NCBI GenBank assembly: GCA_038231275.1
Contig: JBBRLQ010000064.1
Location: 1 to 15,031 of the forward strand
DNA length: 15,031 bases
Source of the DNA: Polyangiales bacterium
GTDB taxonomy: Bacteria > Myxococcota_A > Polyangia > Polyangiales > Polyangiaceae
Direction of reading: 5' to 3'
Below the pieces are notes generated by a model, which ran no database searches, was not told the origin of the DNA, and worked only from the letters and a program-made list of their open reading frames with translations. The translations under genes were made by a program, and so were the position numbers. This document shows, one piece after another, positions 2-15,031 of this stretch. Numbering within the stretch: the stretch's first letter is position 1; the number at the start of each line of letters is the position of its first letter.

Positions 2-358
2 CCTGCACGAACGGACGTTTACATCCAGGGCCCGCTGGTCACGGGCGTCCGGCACGTGCTCGGAAGCGCCAGGCTCCTGGCCCGCGTCGTCCGCGAGGCC
101 GTGACCTTCGGCGTCGCCTACAACATTCTGGCGGTCGGCGCGGCCTGCGCCGGCCTCATGTCGCCGCTGCTCGCGGCTATCTTGATGCCGCTCAGCTCGC
201 TCGGGGTCGTGGGCTGGGTGGTCTACCGGCTGCGCGCGTCAGCCGCGCCAGCCGCGTCAGCCGCGTCAGCCGCGTCAGCCGCGTCAGCCGCACGCCAATC
301 CGCCGTATGCCCCGTCCCCGCCCAGGCGCGGCAAACCCCTGCCGTGGGAGTTTCCTGA
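2..358 (+). CDS. ccoI: Heavy-metal (Cu) P1B-type ATPase CcoI/FixI, C-terminal fragment (5' end outside window)
   Basis: Frame is open from base 2 ([10 protein letters not shown]...). '[15 protein letters not shown]...[20 protein letters not shown]' matches the YN...P..AA..M..SS last two TM helices of P1B ATPases. Stop overlaps the ccoS start (TGATG). Confidence 0.8.
233..292 (+). repeat. 9-bp in-frame tandem repeat (GCCGCGTCA)n, 4 perfect copies plus degenerate flanking copies
   Basis: Perfect GCCGCGTCA at 251-259, 260-268, 269-277 and 278-286; variants at 233-241, 242-250 and 287-292. Encodes (AAS)n in the CcoI tail. Confidence 0.9.
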
Positions 359-525
359 TGGAAGTAATATTTCTACTGGTGTTCATCAGCTCGGTCCTCG
401 TGGCCTGCTCGATTGGAGCCTTCGTGTACACGATAAAACAGAACGATCACGATCACGTCGATCGCCTCGCCATCGCGCCGCTGCGCGACGACGATGGGGC
501 GCGGGCGGTTGGGGGGGCGTCGTGA
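358..525 (+). CDS. ccoS: cbb3-type oxidase assembly protein CcoS/FixS
   Basis: ATG at 358 overlaps the ccoI stop. [45 protein letters not shown]: 55 aa, one TM helix followed by an acidic segment. Lies between ccoI and ccoN. Confidence 0.8.
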
Positions 526-2846
526 GCGAGCCCCGCAGGCTCGAGGAGCAGACGATCGTCTACAACGACGCCATCGCCCGCCGCTTCCTCTTTGCCTCTG
601 TGGGCTGGGGAATCGTCGGGATGCTCGTCGGCGTCATCGTCGCCGCGCAGCTCATCTGGTTCCAGGGGAACGTCGCCCCGCAGCTGTCGTTCGGCCGGCT
701 GCGCCCGCTGCACACCAACGCGGTCATCTTCGCCTTCGTCGGCAACATGATGTTCGCCGGCGTCTACTACTCGACGCAGCGCCTGCTCAAGGCGCGCATG
801 GCCAGCGACCTCCTGGGCAAGATTCATTTCTGGGGCTGGCAGGCCATCATCGTCGCCGCCGCCATCACGCTGCCGTTGGGCTTCACGCAGGGCAAGGAGT
901 ACGCAGAGCTGGAGTGGCCCATCGATATCGCCATAGCGGTCATCTGGGTCGTGTTCGCTATCAACTTCTTCTGGACGCTGAAGAAGCGTAACGAGAAGCA
1001 CCTGTACGTGGCGATCTGGTTCTATATCGCCACGATCGTCACGGTGGCGGTGCTCCACATCGTCAACTCGCTCTCGCTGCCCTGGTCGCCGCTCAAGAGC
1101 TACCCGATCTACTCGGGCGTGCAGGACGCGCTCGTGCAGTGGTGGTACGGCCACAACGCCGTCGCGTTCTTCCTGACGACGCCGATCCTCGGCATCATGT
1201 ACTACTTCGTCCCGAAGGCGGCAGAGCGGCCGGTCTACAGCTACCGGCTCTCGATCATCCACTTCTGGGCGCTGGTGTTCCTCTACATCTGGGCCGGCCC
1301 GCACCACCTGCTCTTCACGGCGCTGCCGGACTGGGCGCAGACGCTCGGCATGGTCTTCAGCGTGATGCTCTGGGCGCCGTCGTGGGGCGGCATGCTCAAC
1401 GGCCTTCTCACGCTCCGCGGCGCGTGGGACAAAGTCCGCACCGATCCGGCGCTCAAGTTCTTCGCGGCGGCGATTACGTTTTACGGCATGGCGACGTTCG
1501 AGGGGCCGCTCCTCTCGATCAAGAGCGTCAACGGCCTCGCCCACTACACCGATTGGATCATCGGTCACGTCCACGCGGGCGCGCTCGGCTGGAACGGCTT
1601 CATGGCTGCGGGAATGTTCTATTGGATGGTCCCGCGTCTCTACGGCACGAAGCTCCACTCCAAGACGCTCGCGGAGACGCACTTCTACCTCGGGACCGTC
1701 GGCATCATCCTCTACGTCGTCTCGATGTGGGTGAGCGGCGTGACGCAGGGCATGATGTGGCGTGCGCTCGATCCGAAGGGCGTCCTGCTCTATCCGTCGT
1801 TCGTCGAGACGTTGATCGCGATCCGGCCGATGTACTGGGTCCGCCTCGCCGGCGGCACGATGTACCTCAGCGGAATGGTGATGATGGCCTACAACCTCGT
1901 CCGCACCGCGCGCTCCGGCAAGGCGGTCGACGGCGAGGCGCTCGTCACGGTGGAGTCGATCGCGCCGGAGGTGCCGTGGAAGAACGTCGTCTTCGGCGGG
2001 CCCGTCGTTCTCGTCGCCGTCGTCAGCGTTCTCGTCGGCGCGCTGGCGGTCGTCGGGATCAACGCGAGCGTCGCGATCGTCGCGCTGGCCACCGCGGTCG
2101 CGATCGGCGGGACCCTCGCGCTCCAGCTCTCGCGCACGGAGGGCCAAAAGGCCTGGCACCGCCTGCTCGAAGGGCGCGCGCTCATCTTCACCGCGTTCGT
2201 CGTCCTGGCGGTGCTCGTCGGCGGAGTGGCGGAGATCATCCCGACGATCATCACGACCCGCACCGACCCCGGCATGAGCGGCGCCGCGACGTACTCGGCC
2301 CTCGAGCTCGAGGGGCGTGACGTGTACCTGCGCGAGGGTTGCTACACGTGCCACTCGCAGATGATCCGGGCGATGCCGTTCGAGTCGGCACGCTACGGCG
2401 ACATCTCGCGCATCGACGACTCGCGGCACGATCACCCGTTCCAGTGGGGCAGCAAGCGCACCGGCCCCGATCTGGCGCGCGTGGGCGGCAAATACCCGAG
2501 CCTCTGGCACTACAGCCACATGCGCGATCCGCGCGCGACCTCGCCGGGCTCGAACATGCCGCCGTACGGGTTCCTCGTCGATGCGAAGGTGGATCTGACG
2601 CGAACGCACGAGAAGCTGCAGGCGCACAAGACCATCGGCGTTCCGTACACCGACGCGCAAATCGCGAACGCCGCGGCCGACGCGCGCGGGCAAGGCGAGG
2701 GGATCGCCAAAGAGCTCCACGAGCAAGGGGCGGACGTCGCGCCCGACAGCGAGCTCGTCGCGCTCGTCTCGTACCTGCAGCACCTCGGCAGGCCGCCGAC
2801 AGTGCTCGAGCCCAAGGTCCCCGCCGTCGCCGCGGCGGGGCACTGA
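522..2846 (+). CDS. ccoNO: cbb3-type cytochrome c oxidase, fused subunits I and II (CcoN-CcoO)
   Basis: CcoN motifs [36 protein letters not shown]. CcoO motifs [13 protein letters not shown] (CxxCH), [14 protein letters not shown]. No stop between the two parts. GTGA overlap with ccoS. Confidence 0.97.
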
Positions 2847-7696: not shown

Positions 7697-8875
7697 CTAG
7701 AACCTGAGCCCGCCCGTGGCGAAGATGCCGAACGCGGGACCGCCGTGGTAGCCGACCGTGCCGGGCACGAAGACGAGGCGCGCGTCGCCGCCGATCATGA
7801 AGCGCGAGTTGGGGATGTCGTAGAGCGCCGTCACGCCGGGCCAGAAGATGAGGCGCGACTCCGACTGGCTCGAGTTGCCGCCGAGCGTGGGGTTGCTGAA
7901 GCTCACCGACGCGTTGAACGACCCGAAGCCGAGGCCGCCGTACGGACGCAGCGTGAAATTCGGGGCGAGCACGAACTCCCACCCGACCTCGGGGCCGATG
8001 TAGAAGGCCGACGTCGAGATGTTCTCGGTGCCGGCGACGGTGCCGATCGTGTACGACGTGCCGAAGTTGTAGACGAGCGAGCCGCCGACGTAGAGGTGCG
8101 CGGTCACGACCTTGCCGCCACGCACGCCGATGCCGACGTTGACGTTGTCGCTCGTGTATCCGAGGAGCGCATCGATGCGGATCGGCTCTTTTACCGGTTC
8201 TTCCGGGCCGTCTGCCGACGGGGGGGCGTCGGTTCGCGCGGTAGCCTTTGCGCCGCCCCCGCGCGGCGTCCCCATTCCGCCAGTGTCGGTTGGCGTCGCA
8301 TTCGGGCTCGCGTTGCCGCTGCCCGAGCTTCCGCCTCCTCCTGCGCCGCTGCTGCCACCCGAGGTTCCGCCGCCTGCGTTGCCGCCGCCGGAGGTTCCGC
8401 CTCCGCCTCCACCTCCGCCTCCGCCAGCTGCCGGGTTCGCGGTCGGCGCCGATCCGCCGCCGGTACCACCGCTCGCGCGACGCGCTTCGGCGAGTCCCTT
8501 CTCGGCCTCGGCGCGCTTGGCGGGCGTTCCGTCCTTCGAGTCGCGCAGGTAGCTGTTGAACGCCTCTTCGGCCTCTTGCGGGTGGCCGCTCTTCAGGCTG
8601 CTCCAGCCGAGGTTCAGGAGCACGTCAGGGTGCTGCTTCAGCGCGTACGCCTGCTTGAATTTGGCGCGCGCGGCCTCGTTCTTCCCCTCGTCGTAGAGCG
8701 TGACACCTTCGCGGAACCGCGCGCGCGCTTCGGCGGTCGACGAATCGTCGCCCTGGGCGAAGGCCGACGTAGGAGCCAGCAGCGTGGCGGCACCGATCGC
8801 AGCAGGCGCGAGCGCGCAGGCGCCGAGCGCGGCGCGAAGGATCAGGGAAATCGTGGGGTGTGAAAGGCCTGACAT
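7697..8875 (-). CDS. Exported protein: signal peptide + TPR domain + Gly/Ser-rich linker + C-terminal outer-membrane beta-barrel-like domain
   Basis: Start placed at ATG 8875 (MSGLSHPT...). Hydrophobic leader ends SAFA|Q. TPR-like helices ARARFREGVTLYDEG...FKQAYAL...VLLNLG. Poly-Gly linker. Amphipathic beta strands ending GGLRF (terminal Phe). Confidence 0.75.
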   Translation of the reverse strand: MSGLSHPTISLILRAALGACALAPAAIGAATLLAPTSAFAQGDDSSTAEARARFREGVTLYDEGKNEAARAKFKQAYALKQHPDVLLNLGWSSLKSGHPQEAEEAFNSYLRDSKDGTPAKRAEAEKGLAEARRASGGTGGGSAPTANPAAGGGGGGGGGGTSGGGNAGGGTSGGSSGAGGGGSSGSGNASPNATPTDTGGMGTPRGGGAKATARTDAPPSADGPEEPVKEPIRIDALLGYTSDNVNVGIGVRGGKVVTAHLYVGGSLVYNFGTSYTIGTVAGTENISTSAFYIGPEVGWEFVLAPNFTLRPYGGLGFGSFNASVSFSNPTLGGNSSQSESRLIFWPGVTALYDIPNSRFMIGGDARLVFVPGTVGYHGGPAFGIFATGGLRF

Positions 8876-11057: not shown

Positions 11058-11574
11058 TTACACGGCGGTGCAGAATTCGGTTGAAGGACCGGCCTGAGCC
11101 GCCTCGATGAAGCGGCGCCGGGTCGGACGCTCGATTTCGCGTCGGGGGCGGTCAGGCGGTGTGGCGGGCGATGGCGACCAGGTTGTTCGAAATCCCCGCC
11201 CAATAGGCGCTGCGCTCGATGCCGTGAGCGCCGCGGTAGCGCGTGCGGTGCATGTCGAAGGTGTGTTTGAGGCGCGCGATGCGCGCTTCTCCGCCTGCAC
11301 GCCATGCACGTGCACGGCGGAACGGACGACGACGCTCGCGTTCGAGCCACGCGACGGAGCGGTGACCGGGTTTTGGAATCGCGACGCACGCGACGCCCAT
11401 CGCTTCCGGGGCGCGCACGTTTTCGAGCGAAAAAAAGCCTCGATCCGTTGCGAGCACGCGCGGTGGTCGCTTGAAGACGCTGCGGTGATGCTCAACCGAA
11501 GGTACGAGCAGTGCGGTGTCGTGCTCGGTCACGACAGCGATGTCGGTGACGATGCCGCCTTCGGCTTCCTGCGG
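11058..11574 (-). mobile_element. Truncated IS remnant (ISNCY/IS5-like): transposase 3' portion plus probable right end
   Basis: Transposase fragment (next feature). The minus strand continues ~90 bp to ...GAATTCTGCACCGCCGTGTA|ACTAG, a plausible terminus next to a CTAG. Left end is absent; exact terminus uncertain. Confidence 0.65.
11152..11574 (-). pseudogene. C-terminal fragment of a DDE transposase (ISNCY/IS5-like)
   Basis: Frame reads PQEAEGGIVTDIAVVTEHDTALLVPSVEHH...LATDRGFFS...WRAGGEARIARLKHTF...RYRG...SNNL, with the DRGF aspartate and R...E..I..LK glutamate motifs. In-frame TGA at 11575-11577 upstream; N-terminal majority is missing. Confidence 0.85.
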
Positions 11575-11582
11575 TCAATTTG

Positions 11583-11648
11583 GTCCACCGACATCCACTC
11601 GACCCGAGCTCCCGCCTTGTCGCGTGTAACGCGTTTTAGGAAAACCGC
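11583..11648 (+). repeat. Direct repeat copy 1 (66 bp) with dif/Xer-like core at 11619-11646
   Basis: GTCCACCGACATCCACTCGACCCGAGCTCCCGCCTTGTCGCGTGTAACGCGTTTTAGG-A-AAACCGC; identical to 14813-14878 except position 11641 (A vs T). Confidence 0.95.
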
Positions 11649-11764
11649 GCCGTTACCGCCCGCATGGCTTTGCATTTCCAACCCCCTCGATGCAGCGTTC
11701 GAGCGGACTCTCGGCGATGTACAGGCGAAGGAGCGGGTAGCCCATCCACTTGCGCAGGCGCCGG

Positions 11765-14005
11765 CTACTTCTCGGTCGCTCGCGCCGCCTCCACCGGCGC
11801 GGGGGACGGTACGCTCGGAACCCGGCTGGCTCGCGCGGGCAGCGTGAAGTAGAACGTCGCGCCGGCACCGAGGGTGCTCTTGGCCCCGATTCTCCCGCCG
11901 TGCGCTTCGACGATCCCCTTGGCGATGTACAGCCCCAGCCCCGCCCCGGCGCTGCGCACCCGGCGCGCCTGCCAATAGCGGTCGAAGATGTGCGCCAGCT
12001 CGAGGCCGTCGATCCCGGGCCCGGTGTCCTCGACGGAGAAGCAGACCGTTTCCGCCTCGGCGCGGATGGCGATCGTGACGGCGCCGCCCTGCGGGGTGAA
12101 CTTGATCGCGTTGCCGATGAGGTTGGAGAAGATCTGGAAGGCACGCTCCACGTCTACGTCCACCAACGCGTCGCTCTCGCCGCAAGAGAGGCGCACCCCC
12201 TTCGACTCCGCGATCGGCGCGAGGATCACGAACGCGTCGGAGACGAGCCGGCTCGCCTCATAGGGCTGGGGCGAGACGTCGAAGCGGCCGGCCTCGATCT
12301 TCGCGAGATCGAGCAGATCGAGGACGAGCCGGTTCATCCGGTCCACCGCGCGCTGAACGCGTCCAAGCGTGCTCTCGGCGCCGGCGTCTCCCCCGACGTG
12401 CCCGCGGAGCACCGCTGCCGAGAGCTGAAGGACGTTGAGAGGATTCTTCAGGTCGTGCGACAGCACCGCGACCATCTCGTCGCGGAGGCGCACCGCCTGC
12501 TCGGCGCGCGCGATTTGCTTGCCGAGATCGAGCTCGATCGCCCGCCGTCGGAGGTCCTCTGCGGCCTCGATTTCGGCGGGCCGCCAGGGGCGCGCGCGCG
12601 CACGCACGACCTGCTTCCAGGCATTGAACGAGTGCCGCGGGTGGTAGCGCGCACCGCCGTCGCTCACCTCCAGGGTCTTGGTCGGATCGCCCGCCCAGGT
12701 GACCGTCCGAACGAGCTCCGGACGAAACCACAGCACGTGGGAGAGCGCGACCCCAGGGAGGGCCAACGCGAGCAGCCCGCTCGCGACGTGAGTGTAGTCG
12801 GCCGCCGGCGGGTGCCGCTCCGCGAGCGCGTCGGTGTGCAGGATACCCGACGACCCTTCCTTGGCGAGCCACGCGACGAGCGCCGAGATCTGCGCCGTCG
12901 AAGGGGTCGCGCCCACCGTTCGCACGCTGCCGGCAGCACACACCGCAGCGCCCGTCGCGCCGACGAGCGCGAGCAGGGCGTCCCCTCGCTGCACGAGACC
13001 GCTCGCCGGGTCTTCTTGCGCGTCGCGCATCGCATCGACGAGCGTCGCCTCGTAGCCTTTCAGCGCACTGCGCAAAGTCCGCGCCTCGATCTCTTCGAGC
13101 GCCGCGATCTGCAGCGACACCACGCGCCCGATGACCTCGCACGCCGCGCGCGCCGCGAAGCTGACGTGTCGCGGGTGCCGGTGATGGCAGGCGACGAGCC
13201 CCCAGAGCGTCTCCGCACGCACCAGCGAAATGCTCATCGACGCGCGAACGCCCATGTTTTGCAGGTACTCGAGGTGCACCGGTGAGACGCTGCGCAGCGT
13301 GGAGAACGACATGTCGAGCGGCGCGCCCGTGTCCGGGCGCAGCTCGGGGACGAGCGGGATCGGCGTATAGCCGGCGTCGGGGATCAGACGCAGCCAGTTG
13401 AGTAGGTACATCTCGCGCGCCTGCCGCGGGATATCCGAGGCGGGGAAGCGCAGTCCTCGGTAGCTGTCCACGTCGACCGCGCGTGCCTCTTCGATCACGT
13501 CGCCGTGTCCGTCGGCGTCGAACCGGTAGAGCAGGACCCGGTCAAAGCCGGTGATCTTCCGGATCTCATCGACGGCGATGCTGCACACCTCCGCCACGCT
13601 GCTCGGCCGCTGGAGACGCGCGAGGGCGCTCCGCAGGGCCGCGTCGCTCGCGGAGGCGGCGGGGTCGTGCCGCTCGAACTCGAGGATGGCGACGCCCTGA
13701 TGGTAGTGCGCGCGCACGTCGAACAGCGACCCGCTCACGTGCGCGAGGAGGGGCTCGCCGAGCGTCGACCCCGCCGCGCGCACCGTCGAGAGCAGCGCTT
13801 CCGCGGTGACACCGACGAGCGCGGAGAGCGGCCGGCGGAGCGCGTCCGCCGGGGCAACGCCGAAGTAGGTCGCCGAGTTCGCGCTGACCTGCTGGACCTC
13901 GAAGCGATGCGTGTCGAGGACGACGAGCACACCGTGCGGCTGGACGGCACCGGGGACGTGGATTGGCTCCACGTCGCAGGCGCGCGCTTCGTCCTGGTTG
14001 GTCAC
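11765..14005 (-). CDS. bphP: Bacteriophytochrome histidine kinase (PAS-GAF-PHY-HisKA-HATPase), 746 aa
   Basis: GTG start overlapping the bphO stop. N-terminal biliverdin-binding Cys in ACDVEPIHVPGAVQPHG, GFDRVLLYRF, FPASDIPRQAR, LRSVSPVHLEYLQNMGV, LWGLVACHH, PHY tongue PRHSF, H-box SHDLKNPL, N-box NLIGNAIKF, G boxes DTGPGI and GAGLGL. Confidence 0.96.
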   Translation of the reverse strand: MTNQDEARACDVEPIHVPGAVQPHGVLVVLDTHRFEVQQVSANSATYFGVAPADALRRPLSALVGVTAEALLSTVRAAGSTLGEPLLAHVSGSLFDVRAHYHQGVAILEFERHDPAASASDAALRSALARLQRPSSVAEVCSIAVDEIRKITGFDRVLLYRFDADGHGDVIEEARAVDVDSYRGLRFPASDIPRQAREMYLLNWLRLIPDAGYTPIPLVPELRPDTGAPLDMSFSTLRSVSPVHLEYLQNMGVRASMSISLVRAETLWGLVACHHRHPRHVSFAARAACEVIGRVVSLQIAALEEIEARTLRSALKGYEATLVDAMRDAQEDPASGLVQRGDALLALVGATGAAVCAAGSVRTVGATPSTAQISALVAWLAKEGSSGILHTDALAERHPPAADYTHVASGLLALALPGVALSHVLWFRPELVRTVTWAGDPTKTLEVSDGGARYHPRHSFNAWKQVVRARARPWRPAEIEAAEDLRRRAIELDLGKQIARAEQAVRLRDEMVAVLSHDLKNPLNVLQLSAAVLRGHVGGDAGAESTLGRVQRAVDRMNRLVLDLLDLAKIEAGRFDVSPQPYEASRLVSDAFVILAPIAESKGVRLSCGESDALVDVDVERAFQIFSNLIGNAIKFTPQGGAVTIAIRAEAETVCFSVEDTGPGIDGLELAHIFDRYWQARRVRSAGAGLGLYIAKGIVEAHGGRIGAKSTLGAGATFYFTLPARASRVPSVPSPAPVEAARATEK

Positions 14006-14637
14006 GAGCCTGCCAGCGCTGCGTCGAGCCAGACGGTGAGCGTCTCGAAGGTCTCGATGGCCGCGGCGATCGCGACGTCGGTGTCGATCGCGGAGGCTGC
14101 ATCGACGTGGCGCGAGAAGCGCGTCCACATCGCCCCGGTCGCGTCGCCGTAGCCGCTGAAGAACGCCGCGCCCCCGGCGGCGTCGAGGCCGAGCGCGGCG
14201 TCGACGTGGCGAAGGATGATCCGTCCGCCGAGCGTCGCGCCCTCCAGCACGTAGAGCACCCCGATCGCCTGCGAGGCGGACGTGACGCGAGGCAGGTCGG
14301 CGCAGCGCGGGAGCGCCTGAACCTCGGCGACGGATTTCCCGAGCGCGGCGAGGTCGGCGACGAGCAGCGCCACCTTGCCGCGATCCCCGAGCGCGAGCGC
14401 GACCCCGTGCTCCGCCGCTGCTCGCGAGAGCCGTGGCTCGAGCTGCGCATAGACTCCATGAAACGCCTCGAGCACGCGCACATAAGTGGCAAGGGTCAGC
14501 GACGGAGACATCAGCGGGAGCGACGCCTCGACGCGCGCGTGCGCGAGCCGGGTGGCCTCGCGCAGCCTGTGCATCGGGCTCTGCGTCGCGGGCATCGTCG
14601 GCGCGTGGAAGAGGAGCTGGCTCGGTGCGGCGTTCAC
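14002..14637 (-). CDS. bphO: Biliverdin-producing heme oxygenase BphO
   Basis: RLREATRLAHARVE (proximal His), GVLYVLEGATLGGRII, FFSGYG..TGAMW..F, AIETF. GTG start at 14637 preceded by AAGAGGTGA RBS (alternative ATG at 14595). Coupled to bphP by a GTGA overlap. Confidence 0.92.
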   Translation of the reverse strand: MNAAPSQLLFHAPTMPATQSPMHRLREATRLAHARVEASLPLMSPSLTLATYVRVLEAFHGVYAQLEPRLSRAAAEHGVALALGDRGKVALLVADLAALGKSVAEVQALPRCADLPRVTSASQAIGVLYVLEGATLGGRIILRHVDAALGLDAAGGAAFFSGYGDATGAMWTRFSRHVDAASAIDTDVAIAAAIETFETLTVWLDAALAGS

Positions 14638-14705
14638 GCTCACCTCTTTCCCGCAAGACGTCATCGGCGTTTGCATTTGCGTCGTGCGTGCCCGAAGGGA
14701 CGACG

Positions 14706-14736: not shown

Positions 14737-14812
14737 GCCGCTCGAACGCGCAGCGCTAGCGCACCGCGCTTAGCTAATCTAGGTCATCCGTTGAGCGTAG
14801 CGCCTACTCAAT

Positions 14813-14878
14813 GTCCACCGACATCCACTCGACCCGAGCTCCCGCCTTGTCGCGTGTAACGCGTTTTAGGTAAACCGC
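14813..14878 (+). repeat. Direct repeat copy 2 (66 bp) with dif/Xer-like core at 14849-14876
   Basis: Same sequence as 11583-11648, offset by 3230 bp. Core GTCGCGTGTAA-CGCGTT-TTAGGTAAACC. Confidence 0.95.
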
Positions 14879-15031
14879 CCACGAGCCGACGGGGCCGCAT
14901 CGCCGACGACGAGGCTCACCGAAACGCCCAGCCCACCCAGAAACGCGCACGCGGACGCAAGCCCGGGCCCTGCGAGATCGCCCAGCCATAGGGCATCCCG
15001 CCGTCGTCGATCCTCCCGATGATGGGCGCCC

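Follow-up and report, generated by a model that had tools for sequence, protein, structure and literature searches.

How did a light-sensor operon come to lie between two nearly identical short repeats at one end of a contig from a polyangial bacterium? The window analysed here is the entire contig C64 (15,031 nucleotides, nt) of a genome, G000, of 9.28 Mb in 164 contigs, and it holds a repeat, R, at 11583-11648 (copy R(a)) and again at 14813-14878 (copy R(b)), with the bphO and bphP genes in between. Both copies are identical at 65 of 66 positions, the sole mismatch being A/T at 11641/14871, and the match is not due to chance, because BLAST within the contig returned it with E = 3.6e-24. As judged from sequence comparison, R is probably a transposase-less copy of the last ~111 nt, on the oriIS side, of an insertion sequence (IS) of the IS91 family (Y2 HUH, rolling-circle), that is, a right-end miniature, since one copy of a sister family, R2, adjoins a transposase remnant of this family and the IS91 ends of related genomes align with R and R2 block for block. 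There is moderate support for including R in a class of IS91-family right-end units, such units clustering directionally, and the pair in the window most likely brackets an acquired bphO-bphP segment.

A first-pass annotation of the window had described a 36-bp arm shared on the left of a core, a TCAAT just upstream of both copies, and almost nothing shared on the right. The TCAAT is found at 11575-11579 and 14808-14812, followed in R(a) by three nucleotides (TTG) missing from R(b), a 3-nt indel, and the near-tandem pair TCCACCGAC/TCCACTCGAC and the palindrome CTCGACCCGAG reported for the arm are both present. The arm itself (11583-11618) is identical in R(a) and R(b), but the shared block amounts to 66 nt and continues through the core. 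Beyond 11648 and 14878 the sequences of R(a) and R(b) part ways, and the lack of similarity to the right of the core is thus true of R(b), but between R(a) and a copy on contig C1 the similarity extends over 111 nt (96%). In total, exactly four copies of R were retrieved from the genome by BLAST and an nhmmer profile, two in the window, one on C1 (R(C1), C1:766867-766977) and one on C18 (R(C18), C18:1145-1226; 89% identity). Alignment of the four copies places a common left edge between ..YC and AATTTGG in 4/4 of them and gives a full unit of 111 nt (11576-11686), in line with the earlier proposal that both partners carried a larger conserved unit. The features of the unit, and the sequence at the window's end to which R(b) is joined, are as follows.

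11576-11686, plus strand: R(a), complete 111-nt unit, read as a probable transposase-less right-end (oriIS-side) IS91-family segment; 96% identical to C1:766867-766977 and collinear with relatives' IS91-family 3' ends.
11576-11600, plus strand: block A (CAATTTGGTCCACC...), with a sharp left edge in the four-copy alignment; an equivalent TCAAWTTGGTCC block occurs in R2 and in relatives' IS91 ends.
11583-11618, plus strand: 36-nt arm (near-tandem TCCACYGAC pair, CTCGACCCGAG palindrome), between blocks A and B of the IS-end layout.
11619-11646, plus strand: block B, a 28-mer resembling the dif site, the core of the first-pass annotation; 18/28 to the genome's dif candidate in the R(b) and C1 versions.
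11629-11659, plus strand: imperfect palindrome GTAACGCGTTTT-AGG-AAAACCGCGCCGTTAC, a predicted subterminal hairpin (strand folding).
11666-11686, plus strand: block C, terminus GGCTTTGCATTTCCAACCCCC, putative oriIS-type end; 16/21 to the end of locus L185 in a relative and 15/21 to a plasmid IS91-family end, GGGCGTTTGAACTTCCTATACGC.
14808-14878, plus strand: R(b), right-truncated, with blocks A and B only, joined straight to Z; 65/66 to R(a).
14874-15031, no strand assigned: Z, the start of a two-copy repeat also found at the C1 end (158 nt, 98.7% to C1:767149-767306), in which the final 37 codons of a minus-strand gene ("gene X") lie.

R2 was detected as two of the other sites scoring 18/28 against dif, and its copies lie at C68:1420-1524, C68:5381-5484 and C2:2200-2306, with a partial one on C56. 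The C68 pair (105 nt, 99%, direct, 3.96 kb apart) flanks glyoxalase and S41-peptidase genes. R2 begins with TCAAATTGGTCC and R with TCAATTTGGTCC, and the internal GTTACGTAAACT of R2 corresponds to TTTTAGGTAAACC in R, a GTAAAC core being common to both. At C68:~1004-1366, what is left of an IS91-family (Y2_Tnp) transposase gene codes for the C-terminus; the genome has five Y2_Tnp genes, all on short contigs, whose C-termini match this remnant at 41-53% identity. R2 copy 1 begins 55 nt past the remnant's stop codon. As a separate observation on the same contig (C68:1-8901 region), the S41-peptidase open reading frame (ORF) ends inside the second R2 copy.

Homologues of the remnant's C-terminus occur in 79 of 201 family genomes, and in the closest of them the 100-250 nt after the transposase stop share one layout. 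A joint alignment shows the 3' stretches of five relatives' IS91 elements to be collinear with R and R2 in three blocks: block A (TCAAWTTGGTCC..TTCC), block B (dif-like) and block C, a terminus of the TTTCCTAT type, like the right ends of the IS common region elements ISCR1 and ISCR2. Block C reads, for example, GGATTTCCTATGCGC or CGTTTCCTATGCTCC in relatives and GCATTTCCTACCCCC in R, whose terminus (GCATTTCCAACCCCC / GCATTTCCTACCCCC) is of the conserved ...TTCCTATAC type and is missing in R(b) and R(C18). ISCR1, ISCR2 and another IS91-family element, taken from three plasmids, end in ..TTTATACTTCCTATACCCC, ..TTTATTCTTCCTATACG and ..TTTGAACTTCCTATACGC, ~235-250 nt after the stop, and block C of R resembles these ...CTTCCTATAC... 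termini; the plasmid element ends thus confirm that block C is an oriIS-type terminus. R also has the imperfect subterminal palindrome expected of an IS91 right end. These comparisons lend no support to the role that the annotation had suggested for the arm, that of an accessory arm of a Xer- or integron-type site, the arm, the core and the next 38 nt being collinear with an IS91-family non-coding 3' end.

When a profile made from the five relatives' ends alone was run over the whole 9.28-Mb genome, R2 was hit with E = 3.5e-5, 3.5e-4 and 1e-3, a resident IS91 end with 0.04, the real dif with 0.25 and the R copies with 0.37, 2.9, 17 and 49, and all of these rank among the first ~16 hits. In local alignments against 1000 shuffles, R2 and locus L179 gave z = 9.0 (0/1000), R(C1) and L175 gave z = 4.6 (1/1000), and R(C1) and L185 gave z = 2.9 (17/1000). 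A Y2 HUH transposase gene, or in the case of R2 copy 1 a remnant of one, lies in the same orientation within ~250 nt upstream of that copy and of the relatives' units, and of 0/4 R copies.

Several points weigh against the IS91 right-end reading. The link of R itself to IS91 ends is modest, with a best E of 0.37 from a profile whose alignment columns were taken from the joint alignment including R and R2, and with 3/5 pairwise comparisons no better than shuffles; the case leans on R2 and on the common layout. An IS91 element with an R-type end is absent from the assembly, its motifs being found on 0/5 Y2_Tnp contigs. R starts with CAAT, which is not among the published tetranucleotides, and no consistent CTTG or GTTC lies beside the termini of R or R2. 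R(b) and R(C18), having no terminus, cannot be direct transposition products. A 16-mer at the left end of R matches an IS3-family inverted repeat on C18 at 15/16 positions, which is unexplained, and how bphOP came between two units is something that we infer.

With regard to the tetranucleotides, CTTG or GTTC was read by eye within 0-12 nt of the terminus in 5/5 intact relatives, while CTCG follows R(a) and GAAC follows 2/4 R2 copies, without a consistent motif; no flanking target duplication was seen at R or R2 copies. The units begin with CAAT (R), CAAA (R2), CAAG (genome G021) or CACC (G045), the preceding base being C or T in every copy seen, and these first four bases match the published tetranucleotides only partially. 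The IS3-family inverted repeat is located at C18:~290-317 (minus strand), upstream of an orfA, and holds CAATTTGGCCCACCGA; it sits 830 nt from R(C18) on the same contig, which could be chance or shared origin. R was rejected as an IS3-family inverted repeat, because its remaining sequence is unlike an IS3 leader and no orfA follows it. Other transposon ends fare no better: (i) a miniature element with terminal inverted repeats, for which no convincing repeat was found, (ii) a Tn3-type GGGG inverted repeat, which is out of register, and (iii) the left end of the neighbouring DDE transposase, whose fragment is a C-terminus without a paralogue.

The right edges of R vary, extending to 71 nt in R(b), ~82 nt in R(C18) and 111 nt in R(a), and to 111 nt running on in R(C1). 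R(C1) continues into ~171 nt ("s") and then into Z, and R(b)+Z is this same C1 layout without ~210 nt, because the C1 unit reaches the same Z via an extra 38 nt plus those ~171 nt; GC/GCC microhomology is present at the junction. R(C18) abuts a frameshifted, truncated sigma-54 activator gene, of which R itself was considered a remnant (in the ELPPFRVER frame) and discarded, since it is not collinear with the expected motif and paralogue homology stops ~25 nt before R. The four R copies are distributed over two lineage-specific islands, and they might have no mobility of their own: homologous recombination or replication errors in two decaying islands would have duplicated a segment of which R is simply a part. 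In agreement with this, R(b)+Z duplicates R+e1+s+Z of C1 at 98-99%, the islands are full of pseudogenes and IS debris, and most genomic IS801 fragments come from reorganisation according to Bardaji et al. (PMC3189936). Nonetheless, the same left edge recurs in four different contexts, and both edges of R2 and of the G021 and G045 units are exact across many unrelated contexts, one of which is an exact dimer, so that we give such passive duplication a small chance.

The known behaviour of the family offers a mechanism for a mobile right end. According to PMC13181058, transposition of IS91 elements initiates at oriIS, downstream of tnpA, and terminates at terIS, which in the native configuration lies next to orf121 and precedes tnpA. 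The right end contains subterminal palindromes, and its final 82 bp are enough; the retained target tetranucleotide adjoins oriIS, 1-10% of events fail to terminate, and a transposase supplied in trans can drive a mini-IS. For IS801, PMC3189936 describes right-end miniatures of 229, 360 and 679 nt with a shared right terminus and a left end at a ter-like tetranucleotide (26% of events), attributed on experimental grounds to prematurely terminated one-ended transposition, and reports that IS801 mobilises upstream DNA too. The units resemble these miniatures in being transposase-less, in sharing the right terminus, in running gapless leftwards to a fixed point with a putative ter-like motif, and in lying beside accessory genes and being able to interrupt other ISs, but differ in their length (100-150 nt vs 229-679 nt), in the dif-like block, in their same-orientation arrays and in being known from sequence alone. 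Gene capture by IS91 and ISCR elements through one-ended rolling-circle transposition (PMC13181058) likewise features an oriIS downstream of a Y2 HUH gene, subterminal palindromes and mobilisable flanking DNA, and the plasmid ISCR ends have a TTCCTAT-type terminus; in classical capture, however, the cargo is on the terIS side of a complete element, whereas here it ends in a bare right end without a transposase gene.

On this basis, the unit would consist of a fixed left edge (CAAT..., at a ter-like tetranucleotide position), a dif-resembling subterminal palindrome and a TTTCCWAC-type terminus. Pieces of cargo plus right end would arise through read-through from a unit, and the bphOP segment may have arrived as captured DNA plus a right end, inserted right beside a resident right end. 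Arrays would grow as each new element lands at the tetranucleotide kept beside the resident oriIS end, and units would stack head to tail in one orientation because the oriIS end is placed next to that retained tetranucleotide. Such a scheme would explain three junctions in this genome, R(a) with bphPO, R(C1) with s and gene X, and R(b) with gene X, at which the foreign DNA would start exactly at the unit terminus or a deletion would now hide that terminus. Since R(b) and R(C18) have no terminus, homologous recombination and later deletions would also be required, the deletions having trimmed both copies, and exchange between copies, by homologous recombination or at the dif-like block, may have played a part.

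The dif-like nature of block B raises a different possibility. A first scan, made with an E. coli dif motif, gave 15/28 for the R core, a level reached at ~1,600 genome positions, and returned a better candidate at C37:35994-36021 (AACGCGCATAAGATGTATTATGTAAACT), the probable chromosomal dif of this genome. With up to 3 mismatches this site is present in 6/60 other family genomes, as a single copy in five and on two contigs in G001, with 0 matches for the reversed-pattern control. The looser pattern KCGCATAA-N6-TTNNGTAAAC (up to 1 mismatch) matches 105/121 family genomes, mostly at exactly one site. Against the host candidate, the R(b) and C1 cores reach 18/28 (9/11 in the XerD-like arm) and the R2 core also 18/28 (10/11), and besides the R cores only 19 other sites in 18.5 million positions score at least 18/28. 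In relatives' IS91 ends, the homologous block B scores 18-23/28, for example 22/28 at L181, 23/28 at L184 and 20 at L185, with at least 18 in 5/29 loci. Compared with the E. coli motif, none of the three plasmid elements exceeds 18/28, the single 18/28 site lying beyond the ISCR1 terminus in AT-rich flank; the dif-like block is therefore not a general oriIS feature, as three canonical ISCR/IS91 ends lack one. As a side observation, a single further site resembling the R/R2 core, TCGTCGCGTGGTTACGTAAACT, is located at C4:~397408 (minus strand), near the C4 end.

The units could accordingly be site-specific recombination sites, with the dif-like block bound by XerC/XerD or by an IS91-associated Xer-like integrase, circles being excised and inserted, and arrays growing like those of integrative mobile elements exploiting Xer (IMEX) or like pdif modules. 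This option has a minor chance of being right. In addition to the scores above and to the lack of such a site in canonical ends, it draws on the contrast between the single true dif of most of the 121 family genomes and the 3-21 copies in 7/121, on the GTCAAC variant of the host dif shared by the units of G057, on the host's T/G at the outer XerC arm shared by the units of G045 and G021, and on a common left half joined in G021 to two right-half types, with the switch near the spacer. On the contrary, the inner arm positions of R are TGTAA and TTAGG vs CATAA and TTATG in dif, so that R does not show the 11-6-11 organisation at close host identity of a dif site; its dyad axis (TTTT-AGG-AAAA) falls inside the "XerD arm" and off the proposed spacer; and the R(b)/Z junction is accounted for by the 210-nt deletion relative to C1. 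Besides, the pattern used on the 121 genomes demands both arms, so that the conservation is partly circular, and host matching is confounded by shared ancestry and does not hold for G107. The core can thus be called dif-like on account of its 18/28 to the family's own dif and of the 22-23/28 in relatives' units, but its inner arms differ and its dyad is off the spacer.

The annotation had suggested looking for a tyrosine recombinase gene at the array end. The genome has nine PF00589 matches, none of them on C64, the C1 end, the C18 start, the C20 end or C108, and two Xer-sized recombinase genes, on C22 and C4. A recombinase-driven cassette system finds no backing here, there being no recombinase gene near the R copies and the integron and tRNA-attachment readings failing: neither strand has RYYYAAC/GTTRRRY by direct reading, there is no intI and 0 PF00589 matches lie by R copies, and ARAGORN finds 0 tRNA or tmRNA genes in the window. 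C68 begins inside a contig-truncated tyrosine integrase gene with 268 homologues at E <= 1e-5 (most of the best with PF00589; top identity 60%). Flanks scanned for tRNAs at two integrase paralogues and one relative locus contain a tRNA-Gly in each, directly adjacent in the two paralogues, and the C68 integrase looks like an ordinary island integrase because its kin adjoin tRNA-Gly genes; it was rejected as the R2 recombinase for the same reason. Elsewhere, a perfect 43-nt direct repeat on C37 (2753-2795 and 7145-7187; locus L163), in contrast to R, is the 3' part of tRNA-Gly(ccc); it flanks a ~4.4-kb element that ends in an integrase gene related to that of C68.

Arrays of such units recur in relatives. 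The seven genomes with 3-21 dif-like pattern sites include G021, with 12 transposase-less units of ~150 nt and exact edges, three of which (G021:C274, at 5222, 8167 and 10403) are in one orientation with the first directly behind an IS91 transposase gene; further same-orientation groups are on its contigs C319 and C85. Likewise, G045 holds 20 units of exactly 100 nt, 13 of them within 41 kb (G045:C3:4411530-4452148; loci L210-L212), 12 on the plus strand and including one exact head-to-tail dimer. This array begins 80 nt past a 601-aa Y2 transposase gene, and each of the other two G045 clusters (5 and 2 units) likewise follows closely on a transposase hit in matching orientation. The cargo between G045 units comprises kdp genes, IS66, Mutator and DDE transposases, a group II intron and a pair formed by an IS91 transposase (Y2) and a Xer-like integrase. 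This last pair is a further argument for Xer sites, but insertion beside an oriIS end predicts arrays equally. The tandem cassette array proposed in the first-pass annotation is partly right in architecture, because relatives hold same-orientation unit arrays; the shared unit is larger than thought and has more same-orientation copies (4 R, 4 R2), but the array in the window is untraceable past two units.

IMEX arrays at dif (CTX/TLC/RS1, the gonococcal island) and Acinetobacter pdif modules, which alternate in orientation, use bona fide XerC/XerD substrates at or derived from dif. The units share with them gene modules bounded by dif-like sites and possible head-to-tail accretion, but they form part of an IS91 end, lie elsewhere than the chromosomal dif (C37), and have weaker inner arms. 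Integron cassettes and clusters of attC sites lacking integrons also show genes followed by a repeated element of ~100 nt stacked one way, but the repeat here is homologous to an IS end and comes without integron core sites or intI. Crosstalk between IS91-type elements and site-specific recombinases has a precedent in the ISCR-related CR2-sul2 unit, moved by the GIsul2 tyrosine integrase via att core sites (PMC9376610), though R has no linked integrase. It is conceivable, with odds as low as those of a pure recombination site, that the units double as Xer-type sites for host XerCD or for the Xer-like integrase of some IS91 elements, in which case the DNA between two units would be an excisable and re-insertable cassette. 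In the open-access text searched, no paper was found that joins "IS91" and "dif-like", and the matches listed for IS91, dif and XerD include none on the dif-like block or the directional arrays.

Every R copy lies 3' of a minus-strand gene, R(b) being upstream of bphO, and the subterminal hairpin contains one compensatory pair between R(a) and the C1 copy (CGCG/CGCG vs CGGG/CCCG); R might then act in cis as a terminator, promoter or leader, or encode a small RNA, next to these genes. However, eight folds gave z-scores of -1.7 to +1.0, energies no better than those of shuffles, there are 0 Rfam matches at E <= 1, the hairpin has no T-run and the flanks are broken genes. Conservation is not found either: BLAST returned only one 33-nt chance-level hit in 200 family genomes, and 20-33-nt chance-level hits (E = 8.6e-4 to 0.01) in 8 of 400 genomes of the order. 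A regulatory role is for these reasons very improbable, and the same folds and the same Rfam search led us to discard a structured RNA or single-stranded DNA and a known RNA family. A promoter, a sigma-54 site or a leader with a short ORF (MSVDQI...) was dismissed by eye, the spacing being off and the frame not conserved between copies. Exact-pattern scans for R (two of a genome collection, one of a metagenome collection) gave 0 matches. In public runs, the short contigs built at k=31 break inside R and provide no evidence on bridging, a circle junction or copy number; the gap in cover at 11626-11827 in two of these runs does not speak for absence.

The genes between and beside the two copies are the following.

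14002-14643, minus strand: bphO, heme oxygenase (Pfam Heme_oxygenase, E = 1e-13), with a GTG start and GGGAAAGAG upstream.
11765-14005, minus strand: bphP, bacteriophytochrome histidine kinase (PAS_2-GAF-PHY-HisKA-HATPase by Pfam), with a GTG start.
11152-11532, minus strand: probable C-terminus of a DDE (IS4/IS5-type) transposase, cut off on the side facing R(a) (Pfam DDE_Tnp_1, profile 59-193 of 200, E = 7.8e-4, below the curated cut-off).

The bphO stop overlaps the bphP start at 14002-14005 (GTGA), which suggests translational coupling, and the GC content of both genes is genome-like (0.71-0.725 vs 0.692). The photosensory part of bphP was matched in 0/3 relatives searched, two of them of the same genus, only the kinase half being so; among metagenome relatives of BphP the best is 43% identical, and R occurs in 0/80 of their loci. 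To the left of R(a) lie the DDE transposase fragment, without a paralogue in the genome, and then recQ. Behind recQ the two same-genus genomes carry other genes, beyond which homology to C20 sets in, so that this stretch is variable.

The contig ends around this locus show how the operon may be connected. The last 100 nt of C1 and C64 are identical, the frame of gene X within Z has a GC content at third codon positions of 0.85, and no paralogue was found when searching from its last 37 codons. C20 and C108 end in another common 361 nt, which encodes an N-terminus with a signal peptide, and the other end of C108 overlaps the C18 start. Genome G019 keeps the C1 end in synteny with C18 (from position 8456 onwards), the two being 2.35 kb apart. 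From the shared contig ends, together with this synteny and the same-genus recQ regions, we infer two paths through the two-copy repeat, whose middle (gene X) is absent from the assembly: C1-R-s-[gene X]-C108-pseudogene-R(C18), and recQ-R(a)-bphPO-R(b)-[gene X]-C20. Across the assembly, nine contig-end pairs share their last 100 nt, one of them being both ends of C63, inverted, and the pairs C1/C64, C2/C68, C3/C100, C19/C55, C20/C108 and C35/C50 run into the same sequence; shared contig ends are repeats or strain variants that break the assembly.

Elsewhere in the window, CcoN (COX1 domain) and CcoO (FixO domain), subunits of the cbb3 oxidase, are joined in a single 774-aa ORF (522-2846, plus strand); the surrounding cco/fix cluster holds FixS, FixP, FixG and DsbD_2. 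A 9-nt tandem repeat of the CGCGTCAGC type occupies 235-288, with four overlapping 27-nt copies, and a GC-rich repeat of 30-36 nt lies at 8310-8425 within a minus-strand TPR protein gene.

If R is an IS91-family right-end miniature, the repeats would be ordinary in kind, debris of a known sort, and they would explain both the arrival of a phytochrome operon absent from close relatives and the assembly fork found there. Less ordinary are the directional arrays, with as many as 13 units in 41 kb, that are made by IS91-derived units carrying a look-alike of the host dif. Arrays together with the dif-like block offer a connection between rolling-circle transposition and Xer recombination that can be tested, and a possible way of building cassettes in large soil-bacterial genomes. 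Were the units instead Xer cassettes, they would combine a rolling-circle transposon with a dif-module system in one hybrid that parallels integrons in function, and across the myxobacterial family IS91-type right ends would mimic the host dif and shed 100-150-nt units of one orientation behind the parent element.

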